From positions 278,343-327,671 of the forward strand of contig CAVYYE010000009.1 of the NCBI GenBank assembly GCA_963772655.1: a stretch of DNA of 49,329 bases. Direction: 5' to 3'. The notes below the pieces were generated by a model. The model was not told the origin of the DNA and searched no databases. It saw only the letters and a program-made list of their open reading frames with translations. Below are positions 5,094-21,603 of this stretch, piece by piece. Position 1 is the stretch's first letter. The number at the start of each line of letters is the position of its first letter. The position numbers were made by a program, and so were the translations under genes. This DNA is from an uncultured delta proteobacterium. Lineage in GTDB: Bacteria; Myxococcota_A; Polyangia; Haliangiales; Haliangiaceae.

Positions 5094-6113
5094 TCAGGGG
5101 ACCTGGATCTTGTCGATCTTGGCGAGCGCCTTGTCCTGCAGGCTCTTCGGGATCGGCGCGAAGTCGATCTCCGGAAGCAACGGCTGCGCCTCGGTGACGA
5201 GGAACTTGAGGTACGCCTTGACGGCTGCCCCCTTCACCTTGTCGCTCTGCTTGACGTACGCCAGACACCAGCTCTGGGCGGTGATCGGATAGGCGTCGTC
5301 GCCCGTGGCATCGAGCGCACTGAAGATCAGGTCGTCGCCGACCTTGATGCCATCACCCGCGGCCGTCACGCTCTTGGCGTCCGGCAGCGTGTACTTGCCG
5401 TTGCGGTTCTTGATCGCGGCGAACACGAGCTTGCTGCCGCGCGCGTCCGACAGGTCGACGTAGCCGACCGCGCCCTTGGTGGACTTCACGATCTGCGCGA
5501 CGCCGCCATTGCCGTTGCCGGCCTGGGTGTCGGCGGCCCACACCACGGTCGCACCGCTGTGAAGCTTCCAGTCGCCCCCCGACGCCATGTCGAGGTACTT
5601 GGTGAAGTTCTCCGTCGTACCGGAGCCGTCCGACCGTCGCGCGACCACGATCTCGAGGTCGGGCATCGTGACTCCCGGATTGTCGGCGGCGATCGCCGGA
5701 TCGTTCCAGTTCTTGATCTCGCGCTGGAAGATCTTGCTCAGCGTGTCGGGCGACAGCTGCAGCTTGTCGACGCCAGGAACGTTGTAGCTGACGGTGATCG
5801 CGCCGAGCACGTCGGGGATATAGAAGAACTCGCCCTTGACCTTCTTCACGTCCTCCGCGTTGTACGGAGCATCGCTACACGCGAAGTCGACGACCTTGTC
5901 GGCGAAGTCCTGGCGTCCCTTTCCGGAACCGCCACCGGCGTAGTTGATCTTGATGTTGGGGTTCGCCTTCGTGAACGCCTCGATCGCGACTTCTTGCGCG
6001 GCCTTCTGGAACGTCGCGCCCGACGCGTTGAGCGTCACCGACTCGGCGCCGTTCGAGGACGCCTTCTTTCCGCACCCGACGAGCCCGATCAATAGGAGCC
6101 AATGCAGCTTCAT
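5094..6113 (-). CDS. pstS: phosphate-binding lipoprotein PstS
   Basis: Lipobox LVGCG after a signal peptide. PBP-type phosphate-binding fold motifs (SGATFQ, GSGKG). Confidence 0.85.
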   Translation of the reverse strand: MKLHWLLLIGLVGCGKKASSNGAESVTLNASGATFQKAAQEVAIEAFTKANPNIKINYAGGGSGKGRQDFADKVVDFACSDAPYNAEDVKKVKGEFFYIPDVLGAITVSYNVPGVDKLQLSPDTLSKIFQREIKNWNDPAIAADNPGVTMPDLEIVVARRSDGSGTTENFTKYLDMASGGDWKLHSGATVVWAADTQAGNGNGGVAQIVKSTKGAVGYVDLSDARGSKLVFAAIKNRNGKYTLPDAKSVTAAGDGIKVGDDLIFSALDATGDDAYPITAQSWCLAYVKQSDKVKGAAVKAYLKFLVTEAQPLLPEIDFAPIPKSLQDKALAKIDKIQVP

Positions 6114-6160
6114 GTGCCCGCAACCCTAGCCACCTCAAATGGCGCATCGGCAAAACCAAT

Positions 6161-6178
6161 GTGGCGGGACGGTGACGG
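6161..6178 (-). promoter_or_regulatory. Pho-box-like direct repeat upstream of pstS (CCGTCAC-CGTC-CCGCCAC on the minus strand)
   Basis: Two 7-bp repeats with 11-bp periodicity, resembling the E. coli Pho box CTGTCAT-N4-CTGTCAC. Ends 48 bp upstream of the pstS ATG. Confidence 0.4.
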
Positions 6179-6224
6179 TCCGGAGATCGCCTTGCGATGC
6201 CACTTTGGCTGACGGAAGGTTCGC

Positions 6225-6942
6225 CTAGTTGGACGTGGGAATCGGTCGATGCCTGAGATCGGTGGCACGGACCATGTAAATGACCTCTTCGGCGAGGTTC
6301 TTGACGTGGTCTCCGATCCGTTCGAGGTAGCGGCAGACCGAGGTCAGCGGGAGTACCCGGGTCACCGCCGCGGGATCGGTCGCCACGTGAGCGATCAACT
6401 CCGCGAATAGGCTGGCATTGAGTCTGTCGATCTCGGCGTCCGCCGTGATCACCGCGGTCGCGCCGTCGGCATCGCGCTTGACGAAGCTATCGAGCACTGC
6501 CTGAAGGTTGTTCTGCACCAGCTGCGCGAGGTGCGGAAGGTCGACCTGGGGTTCGGTGCCCGGCAACCCGTTGATCTCGATCGCTCGTTTGGCGATCCCG
6601 GCGGCCAGATCTCCGATCCGTTCGAGGTCGACCACGAACTTGAGCGACATCGTGATGAACCGGAGATCGCTCGCGACCGGTTGACGGGTTGCCAGGATCT
6701 GGAGCGCGAGCTCGTCGACCTCGTTCTCGTCGAGATCGATCAGCTCGTCGGCCTTGATCACTTCTTGTGCGAGTGCATCGTCGCGGTTGGACAACGCCTT
6801 CATCGCATCGGCGATCTGCTTGCGCGGCGCGCTCGCCCATCGTGGCGAGGCGCTCGCGTAGCGTGCGCAGCTCCTGTTCGAAGTCTCGGCTGGTGTGGGC
6901 GGTCGTCACGAACCCCGGTTGTACTCGACAATTCGAAACCAT
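6225..6942 (-). pseudogene. phoU: phosphate uptake regulator PhoU, interrupted by a +1 frameshift near 6826-6836
   Basis: The N-terminal frame (HTSRDFEQELRTLRERLATMGERA) and the C-terminal frame (KQIADAMKALSNRDDALAQEV...) align without gaps to E. coli PhoU once one base in GCGCCGCGCAAG is removed. Confidence 0.7.
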
Positions 6943-6949
6943 CGCAGTG

Positions 6950-6967
6950 CCGTCACAGCAGCGTCAC
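6950..6967 (+). promoter_or_regulatory. Pho-box-like direct repeat in the phoU / porin divergent region (CCGTCAC-AGCA-GCGTCAC)
   Basis: Same 7+4+7 architecture. Lies 26 bp upstream of the porin start and 8 bp upstream of phoU. Confidence 0.4.
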
Positions 6968-6992
6968 CTCGGTCCTTTTACTTGAGAGAGGT

Positions 6993-8229
6993 ATGACAAA
7001 GACCACTCGCGATCGTCACGCTCGCGGCACTTACCGGGGTGGTTTCGGCTCAGCCCGCGCCATCCGAGCCCGCGCCGCCGGCATCACCGACCACCGCACC
7101 CAACGGCGCCACCCCCCACGACCCCGGTCGCCCCGGTCGCCGAACCCGCCCCGGTCCCCGTGACCGAGCCGGCACCGGTTCCCATCGCCGAGCCACCGCC
7201 CGCGTCCACCGAACCGCCGCCCGACAAGCTTCACGTCGGCGAAGAAGGACTGTGGCAACCGGGACTGCTCGCCCAGGGTTGGTTCCTCGTCGACAACACC
7301 GGTGGCACCACGCCGCTGTCGACGTTCCGGTTGCGTCGGGCCGAGCTCGCGGTGAAGGGCGAGATCCTCCCGAAGCGCGTCTCGTACAAGGTGATGATCG
7401 ATCCGACCAAGGTGCGCGAGACCACCAAGGTCACGGTGGCCGGGCCACCCGATGCGATGGGCAACCCGACGACGGTCGACATCAACAACCCGACGAGCGC
7501 GATCTCGGCGCTCCAGGACTTCTACATCACCGGCAAGCTCGGCTTCGGCGAGCTCTCGGTCGGGCAATTCAAGATCCCGGTGAGCTGGGAGGGCTACAAC
7601 TCGTCGTCCAAGCTGATCATGCCGGAGCGCGCTGCGGTCTCGAAGACATACGGTGACAAGCGCGACCTCGGACTGCGCCTGACCAAGAAGTTTCCGAAGT
7701 GGGGCTACTCGGCGGGGCTGTTCAACGGCTCCGGGCTCAACAAGCTCGACAACAACAACCAGAAGGACGTCGCGCTCCGTCTCGAGGCGTATCCGGTTGC
7801 CGGGCTCACGCGTCGCGGGCGTGACCTACGACTCGCTCGGCTATCGCACGCGCGCCGGCACCAAGGATCGCTGGGAGGCCGACGTGCGCTACGAGCACGG
7901 TCCCTATCTCGCCCAGGCCGAGTTCATCCGCGCGCGCGACATCGCCGCTGATGGAGCCGACGCGGTGTCCGGCCAAGGTACCTACCTCGCCCTCGCCTAC
8001 ACGCTCGAGGATCCCGTCACTGCATGGAGACCTCCAGCCGGTGATCCGGATCGGATACTTCGACGGCGATGTCGACGTCAGCGACGACGAGCTCAGGCAG
8101 TACGACATCGGGGTCAACTACTACCTCAAGGGTCACGAGATGAAGTTGCAGGCGAGCTACTCGCGGCAGGACTTCGCCGCCGGCACCGACGTCAACGAGA
8201 TCATCCTCGCGACGCAGGTCGAGTACTGA
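6993..8229 (+). pseudogene. phosphate-selective porin O/P family (OprO/OprP-like), split over five frames by four +1 homopolymer insertions
   Basis: The signal peptide is restored (MTRPLAIVTLAALTGVVSAQ) if AAA at 6998-7000 is AA. It is followed by a Pro/Ala-rich linker and a porin body (RAELAVKG..QFKIPVSWEG..) ending ...YDIGVNYYLKGHEMKLQASYSRQDF..ATQVEY. Frames shift at A3 ~6999, C6 ~7105, G3 ~7805 and C3 ~8016. Confidence 0.65.
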
Positions 8230-8346
8230 GACACACACGGCGCACACGCACTCACGCAGTTATCGAACCGGTCGAACTTCCACGGAGTGCACGATTGGGA
8301 TCCTGCGTGCAGAGTTTGTGCAACGTTGGGACGCGGAGATCGACGT

Positions 8347-8364
8347 GTGACGGTTTCGTGACGG
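8347..8364 (+). promoter_or_regulatory. Pho-box-like direct repeat (GTGACGG-TTTC-GTGACGG) upstream of the second porin
   Basis: A perfect 7-bp direct repeat with a 4-bp spacer, 34 bp upstream of the TTG start. It is in inverse orientation relative to the other two boxes. Confidence 0.4.
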
Positions 8365-8397
8365 CTAGTTGTCTCGGTTGAAACGGTGGCATGAGGG

Positions 8398-9656
8398 TTG
8401 AACGAACGAGGAACCCTGCGGAGGTTCCTCGTTCTCGTCAGCATCCTCGCGATCCACCACGCACATGTGGCATTCGCCGACTCACCCAATGCGGGCGTGC
8501 CGGACGAAACGAATGACCCTTCTCGTCCGGCGGACACGGCGAGCGCGGACCACACCGCGAACGATTCCGTGGAGGCCGATCACGAAGCGAAGAAGAAAGC
8601 CAAGAAGCACGAGCACGAGCACAAGGCGAGAAGAAGAAGAAGAAGAAGATCGATTTTCGGGGAGAGGTGTTCGTTCGCGGGGCGATCGAAAAAGCCGAAG
8701 GAGATCCGGACCCGGTCGCACAAGGCTCCGTGAACCGCGCGCGCGCGAAGGCAAAGTACCGCTCGCACCAGCTCCGCGCCGAGATCGAAGTCGAGTTTGC
8801 CGGCAAGGCTCGGCTCAAGAACGCGTACGCCGACCTGCGCCTGTACGACGCCGGCACGAAAGTGGACGTGAAGGTGGGGAACTTCAAGGTTCCGTTCTCC
8901 GCGATCCAGCTCGATTCGCTTTGGACGTTGCCGCTGGCCGATCGCGGCTTGCTCGACAACGTGATCGTCAATCGTCTCCAGCTCGCCGGGCGCGAGGTCG
9001 GCGCGATGATCGACATCGAAGGCGCAGGAGACCTGCAGCCCGAGCTGAGGGCCGGCGTGTTTCAGGGGACCGACGACGCCGGGAACCCGCTCGCCGTGGC
9101 GGCGAGCGATCGCTTCGGCCAGAACGCGATCGTCCGGTTATCGCTCCGTCCGGCACATGGGCTCGAGCTCGGGGCCTCGGCCAGCGCCCGCGTCGGCGCC
9201 AAGATCGAACTGCCACTCGTCGTCCGTCGTGGTTACGCGAGCGAGCTCGACGTAACACTCGACGTGCCCGCGGGACCGGGCCAGCTTCGGGCGTGGCTCG
9301 AAGCCATGGTGGGCACGTCGTGGATTGTCGGCGGGACGGATCCCTCGCACGAGCTCACGCGGTTCACCGAGGCTCGCGGCATCGCCGCGTGGCGCTTCGG
9401 CCGGCGCGAGCGCCGGGCACGATTCTTCGAGATCTACTTTCTCGCCGGAGCGCTCGACCCGGACCGCACGTTCACCGGCGATCGCGTCCTCGAGCTCACC
9501 GGCGGCATCACCTACGGCGCGAACGACGTCTGGTCGATCCAGGCCGAGGCCGAGGTGTGGCGGATCGGCGACCAGGCGCCGCTCGGGATCGCGGAGTTCG
9601 CGGTCGCACCCTCGGACACCACCAACTTCCTTCTCCAGCTCGGGGCTCGTTTCTAA
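8398..9656 (+). pseudogene. second porin O/P-like outer-membrane protein, with a -1 frameshift near 8626-8630
   Basis: Signal peptide MNERGTLRRFLVLVSILAIHHAHVAFA and a His/Lys/Glu-rich segment (frame 1). The body (RAEIEVEF..NFKVPFS..LQLGARF, C-terminal Phe) is in frame 0. An (AAG)7 run lies at 8629-8649. Confidence 0.5.
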
Positions 9657-9669
9657 CCAGGAGACTCGT

Positions 9670-10383
9670 ATGACACGGCATGGTTTCGCTTTGTTGTTCT
9701 CGCTCGCGTTCGTGATGCCCGCGTGTGGCGGCTCGAGCTCGGGTGGTGGGGGTGACCCCGACGCACCGATCGCGCCCGGTGACCTGGCGACGCGCTACGA
9801 ACCGTGGGACGTGGGCGCCGTGTGGTCGTACAAGCTCACGGACCCCAAGGGACAGATGCCCGACGCGATGAACAAGCTCACCACGATCATGCCGGAGCAG
9901 GATGTTGGTGGGGTTCACGCCGGCACGATGGCGTTCCTCGTTCACGTCGAGCAGCTCAACGGAACCAAGGACGTGTTCGAGAACCTCGTGGGTGACCTCG
10001 ACGTGCGCTACCAGACGACCTTCCACGACCTCAACGGGAACATCACGACGACGGACGTCGACCAGCCGTTCCGGCTCAAGCTCGACGAGAGCGTCGAGCA
10101 CACCACTCCGGGCGCGCAGTGGTCGACGACGTTCACCGAGACGTCCACGTCACCCGGCAAGGCGCCAAGCACGAAGACGAAGACCGAGCAGTGGCGGGTG
10201 ATCGCGAACGACGAGCAGATCACCGTGATCGCCGGAACGTTCACGGCACTCCACATCCAGCGGACGAGCTCGAGCGGCACCGTGCAGGACTACTGGTACG
10301 TGGCGGGCGTCGGCAAGGTGAAGGAGACCGGTAGCGGCGCCCAAGACGAGGAGCTCATGTCCTTCACGCCACCGGCGAGCTGA
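9670..10383 (+). CDS. hypothetical lipoprotein
   Basis: AGGAG Shine-Dalgarno, signal peptide with lipobox VMPAC followed by a GGSSSGGGG linker. No domain recognised. Confidence 0.55.
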   Translation: MTRHGFALLFSLAFVMPACGGSSSGGGGDPDAPIAPGDLATRYEPWDVGAVWSYKLTDPKGQMPDAMNKLTTIMPEQDVGGVHAGTMAFLVHVEQLNGTKDVFENLVGDLDVRYQTTFHDLNGNITTTDVDQPFRLKLDESVEHTTPGAQWSTTFTETSTSPGKAPSTKTKTEQWRVIANDEQITVIAGTFTALHIQRTSSSGTVQDYWYVAGVGKVKETGSGAQDEELMSFTPPAS

Positions 10384-10397
10384 GAGGAGCGCACGGC

Positions 10398-11219
10398 GTG
10401 TCCACGAGCGCGGCAGAGCAGATCGACGAGCGGATGACGGCGAGTCGTCGCGAGGCCAAGTACCTCGTGACGTCGGAACAAGCTCGCACCATCGCCCGCG
10501 AGGTCAGTCGCCGGATCGACACGCACCGGCATCGTGGCGAAGGAGCGAACCTGTTGCCCGCGCCCCACCACTACGTCACCACGATCTACTTCGACACCGC
10601 GAGCCGGACGCTGTTCGAATCGGCGCGTGCGTCCGATCAACACCTCAAGCTGCGCGCGAAGGAGTACCACGACCTCCATCCGGGACTGACCGAGACCGCG
10701 ACCGATCCCCGGCAACTCGTTCGCTACCGACCCGTGCTGTGGCTCGAGATCAAACACCGCGAGGGCGACCACACCGGCAAGCAGCGGATCGGGATTCCCA
10801 AGCGCGACGTTCCGGCGTTCTTCACCGACGGTCGAATCACGCCCGCGATGGTCAAGGTCGAGAAGCGCGACGTGCTCGATGCCGTCGCGCGCTTGTGTGC
10901 ACGCTGCAACGAGCCGCTGCGCGCCGACTGCCTGGTCAACTACCGGCGCAACGCGTGGCAAGACCCTGCCGGCGGCCTGCGCGTCACGATCGACACCGGC
11001 CTGACGTTCTTCGCGCCTCCAGACGACCTCTGGAGTCGCGAGTGGGCGCTCGTGCGACCCACGCTCGGAGCTCCGGTCGCCACCGAGGCTCGGCGCGTGC
11101 TCGAGGTGAAGAGTCACGGTGAGCCGCCCCGCTGGTTGGTGGAGCAACTCGATACGCTCGGGATCGAACCGCTGCCGTTCAGCAAGTTCGAGGCCGCGTC
11201 GAGCGCCGTACATGGCTAG
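10398..11219 (+). CDS. VTC-domain (CYTH-like, polyphosphate-polymerase-type domain) protein
   Basis: REAKYLV ... LKLRAKEY ... LWLEIKHREG motifs typical of bacterial VTC-domain proteins. GTG start with a GAGGAG Shine-Dalgarno. Confidence 0.6.
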   Translation: MSTSAAEQIDERMTASRREAKYLVTSEQARTIAREVSRRIDTHRHRGEGANLLPAPHHYVTTIYFDTASRTLFESARASDQHLKLRAKEYHDLHPGLTETATDPRQLVRYRPVLWLEIKHREGDHTGKQRIGIPKRDVPAFFTDGRITPAMVKVEKRDVLDAVARLCARCNEPLRADCLVNYRRNAWQDPAGGLRVTIDTGLTFFAPPDDLWSREWALVRPTLGAPVATEARRVLEVKSHGEPPRWLVEQLDTLGIEPLPFSKFEAASSAVHG

Positions 11220-13221
11220 CAGCCGCCGCGTTCGGGCCGCGATCCGGTGGTCGCTGACCGTCGCGATCGTGATCTACGCGGTCCTCGATCGCGGTGGCGA
11301 CGACGAGCGACGCCGCGCGGAACCGAGCGACGAGCCCGGTGTGGCATCGCGCCTCCGGATCACGGCGATCAGCGATGCGGACGTGAGCCCGGGCGACGCG
11401 ATCATCGTGTCGTACGACGGCGCCGAGGGGGCGGAGCCGATCACGGCCACGCTCGCCAAACACCCGGCCGAGATCCTGGTGCGGAAGCCGTCCGCGGTCG
11501 TCGTGCGAATCTCGAACGAAGTCGACTACGGCAAGGCCAAGCTCCGGCTCTATCAGGGCGACCGCAAGTCGAAGTCGTGGGACCTCCACGTCCGCGCGAC
11601 CCACCACAAGAAGCTGATCGGACGGCTGCTCGGCGGGCTCGCACTGTTCGTGTTCGGGCTCGGCCTGTTGGCGCTCGGCGTCCGCGGGCTCGCCGGTCAG
11701 GGGCTCCGCACGCTGCTCGGCCGGCTCACGCAATCGCCGACCAAGGCGCTCGGCGTCGGGGTTCTGGTGGGAGCCGTCACGCAGCTCACCACCTCGGCCG
11801 CCGCGTTCACCGTGAGCCTCGTCGAAGCGCGCCTGCTCGCGTTCGCGTCGACGATCGCGGTGTTCGTCGGGGCGCAACTCGGCGCGTCGATCACCGGGGC
11901 GCTGCTGCCGGTTCCGGTCGCGCGCGAGAGCTTGCTGATCATCGCGATCGGCGTGGTGTGGACCCGACTATCGACCGGGCGCCGCGCACAGGCGGTCTCC
12001 CGGTTGGTGCTCGGTGCCGGGCTCATGCTCTACGGACTGCATCTCCTCCAGAGCAGCATCGAGCCGCTCGTCGGAGATCCGCAGATCCTGCCCTACGTCG
12101 GCTACCTCCAGGCCGACGGAGCGATCGCGCTACTGACCTGCGCCGCCACCGGAGCGTTGCTCGCGTTCGTGCTCCAGGGTCCCGGCCCGATCTACGTGCT
12201 GGTGGTCGGGCTCGCGCAGGCGAGCGGAGCCATCCCGCTGACCAACGCGCTCGCGATCCTCGCCGGAACCAGCGCCGGAGCAGCGCTGGGAATGGCGCTG
12301 GTCGCACAATCCAACCGGTCGACGCGAAAACTGGCGATCCCTCACCTCGCATACGGCATCGCCGCCACGTTGTTCGCGCTCGCGACGCTACCCGTGTGGA
12401 CGGGCCTCGCCGAAGCGATCATCGGAAGCGAGACCGCCGCGGTCGAATACGGCCACTCCGTCGTGCGCGTGCACATGTCGGCTCGTCTCGCGATCGGCTT
12501 CGCCGGTTCGCAGCTCGCCGCGGCAGCACTGTGGTTGGCCGTGCTGCCTGCCCTGACCGCGAGGGTGATCCGCCATCGCGAGGCGGCGCCCCCTGCCCCT
12601 CCGCCCCAGTCCGCCGACGCACTCGCGCTCGCGACCCAGCGCGAGCTGGCGAAGATCCTCGCTCGCCAGCGACTCGTGGTCGAGATCGCGCTCGAGACCT
12701 CCTGCGCGTCGGAGCGTGCACGCGCCGCAGACGCGGAGGAAGCGCTGGCAGAGGCGCGCCGGCAAATGGAGCTCCACTACGCCCGGCTCCAGGCGAGCCC
12801 GACGACCGCCGAGCTCGAGCGTCTCAAACGGGTGATGGTCGCGGGCCTTCAGCTCCAGCGGATGGTCGAGCAACTGGTGCAGGTGGCCGAGCTCGGCGTC
12901 GAGCGACGTCTCGTCCTGACCGCGATGGAACAGGAGCGTCTCCGCGCGATGCACGCGCTCGCGCGGGAATCCTTCGACGCCGTGATCGCCGCGCTCGAAG
13001 GAGGGTCGATCGATCTCGAGGCCGCGGGCGCTCGCGAGATCAAGATGAACCTGCTCGAGGCCGAGGGTCGCGCCACGTCATTCGAGGTGCGTGGTCGAGG
13101 AAGTGACAACACCTCGCCGGTTCGTCTCGGGATCGCCGAGCTGATCGACGCCTTCGAGCACGTCGGGAATCACCTGTTTCGCGTCGCCAACGCCTCGGCC
13201 GACGAGGGAGAGCTGGCGTGA
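11212..13221 (+). CDS. Na+/phosphate cotransporter (NptA/Na_Pi_cotrans family) with a C-terminal PhoU-like domain
   Basis: Polytopic N-terminal half carrying TQLTTSAAAF (the TxxQSSSA family motif). Coiled-coil C-terminus. Overlaps the VTC gene by 8 nt. Confidence 0.8.
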   Translation: MASSRRVRAAIRWSLTVAIVIYAVLDRGGDDERRRAEPSDEPGVASRLRITAISDADVSPGDAIIVSYDGAEGAEPITATLAKHPAEILVRKPSAVVVRISNEVDYGKAKLRLYQGDRKSKSWDLHVRATHHKKLIGRLLGGLALFVFGLGLLALGVRGLAGQGLRTLLGRLTQSPTKALGVGVLVGAVTQLTTSAAAFTVSLVEARLLAFASTIAVFVGAQLGASITGALLPVPVARESLLIIAIGVVWTRLSTGRRAQAVSRLVLGAGLMLYGLHLLQSSIEPLVGDPQILPYVGYLQADGAIALLTCAATGALLAFVLQGPGPIYVLVVGLAQASGAIPLTNALAILAGTSAGAALGMALVAQSNRSTRKLAIPHLAYGIAATLFALATLPVWTGLAEAIIGSETAAVEYGHSVVRVHMSARLAIGFAGSQLAAAALWLAVLPALTARVIRHREAAPPAPPPQSADALALATQRELAKILARQRLVVEIALETSCASERARAADAEEALAEARRQMELHYARLQASPTTAELERLKRVMVAGLQLQRMVEQLVQVAELGVERRLVLTAMEQERLRAMHALARESFDAVIAALEGGSIDLEAAGAREIKMNLLEAEGRATSFEVRGRGSDNTSPVRLGIAELIDAFEHVGNHLFRVANASADEGELA

Positions 13222-21285: not shown

Positions 21286-21603
21286 ATGGTGGCGTGCGCC
21301 CTGGCGGGGGCGTGGATCGTGCGACGCGTGATGCGCGCGCACGCGGTCGCGGTGCCCGAACCGATCACCGATCGTGCGGCCCTCGACGAGCATCGCGTCG
21401 ACGGCGATCACGTGTACTCGCGGTCGACCCTGCGCGTGCGCGCGCAGTCGACGCAGGGCGTCCGACTGGCGCGCGGCAGCATCGCGCCGCCGATCGCGGT
21501 GTCCGGCGTGATCGTGATTCCCGAGCCCGAGCCCGAGCCGGTCAGCCAGCGACGTCCGACCACGTTGCCGGGTGACGGGCATCGTCCCGTCACGGTTCAC
21601 TAG
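21286..21603 (+). CDS. hypothetical small membrane protein
   Basis: GGAGG upstream. MVACALAGAWIVRRVM hydrophobic start and a PEPEPEP tract. Weak call. Confidence 0.3.
   Translation: MVACALAGAWIVRRVMRAHAVAVPEPITDRAALDEHRVDGDHVYSRSTLRVRAQSTQGVRLARGSIAPPIAVSGVIVIPEPEPEPVSQRRPTTLPGDGHRPVTVH

Follow-up and report, generated by a model that had tools for sequence, protein, structure and literature searches.

Predicted Pho boxes upstream of pstS and phosphate porin genes in an uncultured Kofleriaceae lineage, with one atypical site beside a sigma-54-like promoter

In Escherichia coli, a Pho box lying about 10 bp upstream of the −10 hexamer substitutes for the −35 element. Pho boxes consist of two 11-nt direct repeat units, and their consensus depends on the species (PMC4415409), being CTGTCAT in E. 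coli and GTTCACC in Streptomyces (PMC4415409, PMC2275107). PhoB is a dual regulator that requires strict spacing for activation (PMC10294691). Our literature search turned up no published Pho box from Myxococcota; for this group, a review mentions only that Myxococcus xanthus has multiple Pho two-component systems (PMC4415409). Here we describe three CCGTCAC-N4-CCGTCAC repeats in a 49,329-nt stretch of DNA (the window; G+C content about 68%) from a metagenome-assembled genome of an uncultured lineage of the myxobacterial family Kofleriaceae, which an earlier note had picked out upstream of pstS and two porin genes. The repeats are very probably Pho boxes, that is, predicted operators for the PhoB-type (OmpR-family) response regulator of this lineage. 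Judged from sequence, the locus is that of an ordinary Pho regulon with one oddly placed site beside a sigma-54-like promoter.

The system resembles that of E. coli (CTGTCAT-N4-CTGTCAY) in having at least two 7-bp direct units with 4-bp spacers, a GTCA core and an orientation with transcription, as well as tandem boxes at pstS, an apparently autoregulated phoBR and a largely identical recognition helix. The enterobacterial architecture recognized in the earlier note, a direct repeat of 7 + 4 bp, is present, and CCGTCAC agrees with CTGTCAT at five of seven positions (C1 and G3–A6). In contrast to E. coli, position 2 of the Kofleriaceae units is C or G where E. coli has T, position 7 is C, the spacers are G+C-rich, and the transcripts are predicted to be leaderless. 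The gene order also differs, as phoU lies upstream of pstS, in one operon with phoB–phoR in relatives, and phoB–phoR is missing from the window. Units with the intermediate sequence CTGTCAC are present in four relatives (L013, L024, L084 and L093). The PHO boxes of Streptomyces coelicolor, which are also built of 11-nt units, are a comparable high-G+C variant with variable numbers of strong and weak units (PMC2275107, PMC4415409), but their core is GTTCACC rather than CGTCAC, and the DNA-binding domain of the regulator of the relatives is nearer to proteobacterial PhoB. Mycobacterial RegX3 and PhoP also belong to the OmpR/PhoB family; the sites of PhoP are direct repeats of 7 bp separated by 4 bp (PMC4832192), the geometry seen here.

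Site 1 (positions 6161–6178, minus strand; CCGTCACCGTCCCGCCAC) reads CCGTCAC cgtc CCGCCAC and scores 22.2 bits; the box of site 2 (6950–6967, plus strand) is CCGTCACAGCAGCGTCAC; and site 3 (8347–8364, minus strand; CCGTCACGAAACCGTCAC) is a perfect box, inverted relative to its own gene, porin 2, as the earlier note had observed. The sequences and positions given there proved exact, and no other match with up to one mismatch occurs in the window. The distances to the start codons are likewise as first described: 48 nt for site 1 (pstS ATG at 6113), 26 nt for site 2 (porin 1 ATG at 6993) and 34 nt for site 3 (TTG at 8398). Family searches identified the flanking genes as encoding PstS (TIGR00975) and two Porin_O_P proteins, in line with the role in phosphate acquisition that had been ascribed to them.

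The assignment draws on motif statistics, conservation, gene context, spacing and the similarity of the regulator. The three paired matches in the window, at up to one mismatch, compare with 0.16 expected, and none of 100 dinucleotide-preserving shuffles reached three. The lone 7-mer CCGTCAC, with 14 occurrences against 16.4 expected, is not enriched; the signal thus lies in the 11-bp-spaced pair and not in base composition. In a position weight matrix scan of the 49 kb the three sites scored 19–22 bits, and no other position exceeded 14.3 bits, the 14.3-bit runner-up being the phased third unit of site 2 at 6939. The GTCAC core is at least 93% conserved. The earlier note had allowed that such repeats might be frequent at random in GC-rich DNA. 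Although the single 7-mer is no more common than expected and the top score among 100 random sequences was 23 bits, the probability that the repeats are a chance or compositional feature is negligible: the excess of paired sites speaks against it, all three sites are intergenic and beside Pho genes, and it is refuted by the comparative data, in which position and phase of the boxes are conserved in 30 genomes although the flanks diverge.

These data come from a PstS profile scan of species-representative genomes, which gave 30 myxobacterial loci; the locus of the closest PstS (82% identity), L078, was added by look-up. The pattern with up to one mismatch has 48 matches in the loci of the 30 relatives, and each of the 48 precedes pstS, a Porin_O_P gene or a phoB–phoR–phoU operon, as the proposed association with Pho genes predicts. 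The box orthologous to site 1 is kept in 29 relatives. In an analysis that made no use of the motif, CGTCAC emerged as the most widespread 6-mer in phoU–pstS spacers (24 of 24, against 3.3 expected). Taken by its sequence and gene context, this set of boxes is the classic signature of a Pho regulon, including predicted autoregulation of phoB.

The boxes belong to longer arrays. The full array of site 2 (6939–6967, plus strand) consists of three phased units, CCATCGC agtg CCGTCAC agca GCGTCAC, and when the porin 1 promoter is aligned with four orthologous promoters only the unit cores TCGCA, CGTCAC and CGTCAC are invariant. Site 2 is followed after 11 nt by a −10-like TACTTG (6979–6984, plus strand; porin consensus gTtA.ttG), and a further 8 nt separate this hexamer from the ATG of porin 1 at 6993. 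At pstS, the reported box is the distal of two boxes, forming the distal half of a four-unit array (6178–6139; CCGTCAC / CCGCCAC / GTTTTGC / GCGCCAT). The proximal half (6139–6156, minus strand; GTTTTGC cgat GCGCCAT) holds units 3 and 4 in 11-bp phase, and unit 4 is CGTCAC in most relatives. A gap of 10 nt separates unit 4 from the −10-like hexamer TAGGGT (6123–6128, minus strand), which is conserved as CTAnGGT in 30 pstS promoters and precedes the pstS ATG at 6113 by 9 nt. The consensus of these promoters, C.GTCACCGTCCCGtCAC A...G.t.CGC.....CGTCAC, corresponds to a layout of C.GTCAC-CGTC-CCGtCAC, a weak unit, CGTCAC, 10 nt, CTAnGGT, about 8 nt and the ATG.

The phoB promoters of relatives have a similar design, with a box, 8 nt, the extended −10-like TGCTAAGGC, 6 nt and the ATG (L015 3008–3033 and the equivalent positions in 22 relatives). 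The spacing from box to −10-like hexamer to ATG is fixed in three promoter classes (pstS, porin and phoB). Sites 1 and 2 are oriented with transcription, with the last unit 10–11 nt before a conserved TAnGGT or TAnttG hexamer, which in turn lies 6–9 nt before the ATG in the phoB, porin and pstS promoters. No −35/−10 consensus promoter was found in 6050–8500. This geometry agrees with that of E. coli promoters, in which the Pho box takes over from the −35 element and ends about 10 nt before the −10. Since a leader would not fit into such a layout, the mRNAs of pstS, porin 1 and phoB are apparently leaderless or nearly so; the very short leaders that the earlier note had suggested would, by the spacing of hexamer and ATG, be close to zero in length.

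We hypothesize that, under phosphate limitation, phosphorylated PhoB would bind the (C)(C/G)GTCAC units head-to-tail, one helical turn apart, in arrays of three to four. At pstS and porin 1, the last unit, 10–11 nt upstream of the −10-like hexamer, would stand in for the −35 element, and PhoB would recruit the housekeeping RNA polymerase, as it does in E. coli. The mRNAs would be leaderless, with transcription starting at the start codon or within 1–3 nt of it. In relatives, phoB–phoR–phoU would also be driven by the same box and would thereby be autoregulated.

A GATCTCC (6182–6188, minus strand) lies 3 nt (gga) upstream of site 1 in 11-bp phase and recurs in several pstS promoters. GATCTC/GAGATCTC motifs occur in the same phase upstream of boxes both in the window (6182–6188 and 8335–8341) and in relatives (for example, L015 2940–2950), where the GAGATCTC palindrome sits midway between the divergent porin and phoB boxes. 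The motif could represent a weak extra unit or the site of a separate factor.

In all relatives with enough flanking sequence, the porin and phoB genes point away from each other and have one box each, the two boxes being about 59 bp apart, and phoB–phoR–phoU precedes pstS. The earlier note had called for a PhoB-type regulator with conserved recognition. In relatives such a regulator is encoded directly behind one of the boxes, so that this part of the claim stands; the window itself lacks phoB–phoR. The best family of the relatives' regulator in NCBIfam is PhoB (TIGR02154, 244 bits), the top families of its partner kinase are PnpS and PhoR, and the JGI cluster name of the regulator is phosphate regulon PhoB. 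Its DNA-binding domain aligns to the structures of the E. coli PhoB effector domain (1gxp and 3t72; E value 2.5e-17), and the recognition helix reads RTVDTHVKRLR, against RTVDVHIRRLR in E. coli PhoB.

DNA homology between L078 and the window covers phoU–pstS–pstC and porin 1 but skips about 2.1 kb with the phoB-side box, phoB and phoR. At the junction (6910–6935), the porin 1 promoter of the window directly abuts the start of phoU (GTG at 6909). Because the phoB–phoR segment is missing, the cognate regulator would have to be encoded elsewhere, and we infer its identity from the relatives. One locus, L097, encodes a PhoB at 88% identity; it could not be tied to the genome of the window.

Several points weigh against the assignment of the repeats as Pho boxes. 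The position weight matrix was built from sites picked for their likeness to the consensus of the earlier note, which makes the scan partly circular. Site 3 is inverted and only 1 nt from a TAGTTG, a non-canonical orientation and spacing. The regulator of the relatives, at 244 bits, falls under the NCBIfam PhoB cut-off of 296, and a search for PhoB and PhoR homologues across the 49-kb window found none. The last two points would also fit boxes that are bound by another OmpR-family regulator or that serve a non-phosphate signal, as would the fact that the best solved relative of the full-length protein is RegX3 and that Myxococcus has several Pho-type systems (PMC4415409). We consider this unlikely: the boxes front pstS, phosphate porins and phoB–phoR–phoU itself in 30 genomes, and the top family of the regulator is PhoB. 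Taken alone, its DNA-binding domain is nearer to E. coli PhoB than to RegX3 (E value 2.5e-17 versus 7.9e-12), and RegX3 is itself a phosphate regulator.

Operators for PhoB remain the favoured reading. For the Pho regulon of this uncultured family of myxobacteria, the sites define an operator consensus that is well supported, (C)(C/G)GTCAC-N4-CCGTCAC, together with a promoter layout. The consensus permits prediction of the Pho regulon in these genomes and shows the extent to which the PhoB recognition code of enterobacteria is retained. Of greater interest are the secondary leads: the apparently leaderless layout of pstS, phoB and the porin gene, the loss of phoB–phoR from a conserved position and the pairing of a Pho box with a sigma-54-like promoter.

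This pairing occurs at site 3, upstream of a predicted operon of porin 2, a lipoprotein, a VTC-domain protein and a Na/Pi cotransporter (8398–13221, plus strand; the porin 2 start is TTG at 8398, or 8416). The position weight matrix scan found no box above 10 bits ahead of the VTC or Na/Pi genes; lacking boxes of their own, these genes are probably co-transcribed with porin 2. The four-gene order recurs in L080–L082, where it forms a separate locus. As a Pho box, site 3 is only in part what the earlier note had proposed: it is a conserved box of the same kind, but its position and orientation are not the canonical ones. The inverted box is kept in L079 and in L082 (about 60% protein identity) and half-kept in L089 and L090, and a box in direct orientation is found in L080, L084 and L091–L095.

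A sigma-54-type −24/−12-like element (8387–8402, plus strand; TGGCATGAGGGTTGAA) lies downstream of site 3, with the sequence TGGCAT-N5-TTGA in the window and TGGCAY-N5-TTGAA in orthologues. In an alignment of 11 orthologous porin 2 promoters, GGCA and TTGAA are the sole invariant blocks. The only match to TGGCAY-N5-TTGAA in 747 kb of background is the site of the window, in which 0.04 occurrences are expected. The spacing is exact for sigma-54 (TGGCAC-N5-TTGC, with 12 nt from the GG to the −12 G), but the −12 dinucleotide is always GA and not GC; use of sigma-54 is predicted from this element. We considered whether TTG 8398, as a conserved start codon, could explain the TTGAA, and rejected this: in L081 and L082 the TTG and the signal peptide are in different reading frames, so that coding does not account for the conserved TTGAA. 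Also rejected was TAGTTG (8366–8371) as a general sigma-70 −10 element of porin 2, as the gaps between box and hexamer are inconsistent among orthologues (1, 7, 9 and 19 nt). No Sigma54_activat protein was found among the open reading frames scanned in the window. A conserved upstream element (8318–8332, plus strand; GTGCAACGTTGGGAC), partly palindromic and present in variants upstream of the box in L080, L081, L082, L084, L090 and L091–L095, is a possible candidate for an activator-binding site.

The closest described case is in Desulfovibrio vulgaris, in which the por operon has a PhoB site (AGGTTACAGCATAGTTAC) ahead of its sigma-54 promoter (PMC6456213). As at site 3, a box for an OmpR-family PhoB precedes a sigma-54-type promoter by a few tens of bp, and the effect of the box is left unresolved (PMC6456213). 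The Desulfovibrio case is, however, confined to that species and to a non-Pho operon, whereas here the pairing is kept across porin–VTC–Na/Pi operons, the orientation of the box varies and the −12 motif is TTGA, not TTGC. Among porin 2 orthologues, the distance from the box to the TGGCA element also varies, from about 15 to 40 nt.

On these sequence grounds, site 3 is a real box, yet one not expected to work by the canonical −35-replacing mechanism. Most likely it modulates the porin 2–VTC–Na/Pi operon rather than activating it canonically, and repression, modulation or activation would each be possible, as would a neutral role. One specific form, which we hold to be possible although the odds are against it, is that site 3 is a negative site, with bound, phosphorylated PhoB blocking the operon at low phosphate. 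The block could arise because the box sits between the upstream activator site and the sigma-54-like promoter, or because it overlaps the −35 and spacer of a sigma-70 promoter that has TAGTTG as its −10 element. In either case low- and high-affinity phosphate uptake would be reciprocally controlled. The inverted box abutting TAGTTG, retained at least in part in L079, L082, L089 and L090, fits this idea, as do the known dual action of PhoB and the variable distance and orientation of the box, which repression would tolerate but PhoB activation would not (PMC10294691). Against it, the direct box of L091–L095, 9 nt before a TAGATC hexamer, looks activating, and the content of the operon (a porin and a phosphate transporter) would also fit induction.

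A bolder and more doubtful proposal is that the PhoB-type regulator of the Kofleriaceae acts on a sigma-54-dependent promoter, through a box of flexible orientation and distance placed between an activator site and TGGCAY-N5-TTGAA. It would thus control the porin–lipoprotein–VTC–Na/Pi operon, for example by anti-activation, and the uptake modules would be switched reciprocally. If true, a single regulator would switch a low-affinity uptake and polyphosphate module against a high-affinity module of Pst and porin 1.

It is very unlikely that site 3 is instead a non-functional leftover of rearrangement, such as a phoB-side box stranded after the loss of phoB–phoR. Relatives do carry a box that faces away from the porin gene toward phoB, phoB–phoR has been lost from the window, and site 3, read in its own direction, is not followed by a −10-like hexamer. 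We rejected this origin because L082 has the inverted box together with porin 2 at a separate locus with unrelated left-hand neighbours, and porin 2 orthologues generally have a box. Modulation of the operon by site 3 remains our preferred reading.

The L079 contig, an independent metagenome sequence with 97.9% DNA identity to the window, starts (position 1) at window position 8232, the boundary between the porin 1 stop and site 3. Because the contig ends at that boundary, the adjacency of porin 1 and porin 2 is without independent confirmation, and the junction could be a structural variant or a mis-join.

The remaining Pho genes of the window are those expected around pstS (5094–6113, minus strand; TIGR00975, 304 bits), with pstC, pstA and pstB behind it on the same strand as far as about 2436. 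The phoU gene (6225–6909, minus strand; TIGR02135) has one frameshift near 6805, and its GTG start at 6909 was set by alignment to the phoU start of L078. Porin 1 (6993–8229, plus strand; OprO/P family, Porin_O_P) has at least three frameshifts and 80% identity to the intact porin of L078. The frameshifts map to 6800–6810 in phoU, 7000–7010 and 7800–8040 in porin 1 and 8590–8660 in porin 2, where the break falls in a (GAA)n run; the orthologues are intact. They look like indel noise of long-read assembly, and may also be real pseudogenes.

An Rfam scan of 5900–8800 returned nothing credible. A further candidate at 21572–21593 (GTGACGGGCATCGTCCCGTCAC), about 220 bp upstream of a Ser/Thr kinase gene, was rejected as a fourth site because it is an inverted, not a direct, repeat of the same 7-mer. 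Downstream of pstB (744–2351) lie genes for an extracytoplasmic function (ECF) sigma factor, a zf-HC2 anti-sigma-like protein and a DoxX protein, with no associated Pho box. The window PstS has 66–82% identity to proteins of Kofleriaceae and Myxococcota metagenome-assembled genomes, and its next-nearest kin after the myxobacterial ones are from Actinomycetota (42–59% identity; loci L030 and L032–L077). Together with RegX3 as the best full-length solved relative of the relatives' regulator, this could be a sign that the pst module has a shared ancestry or was transferred.

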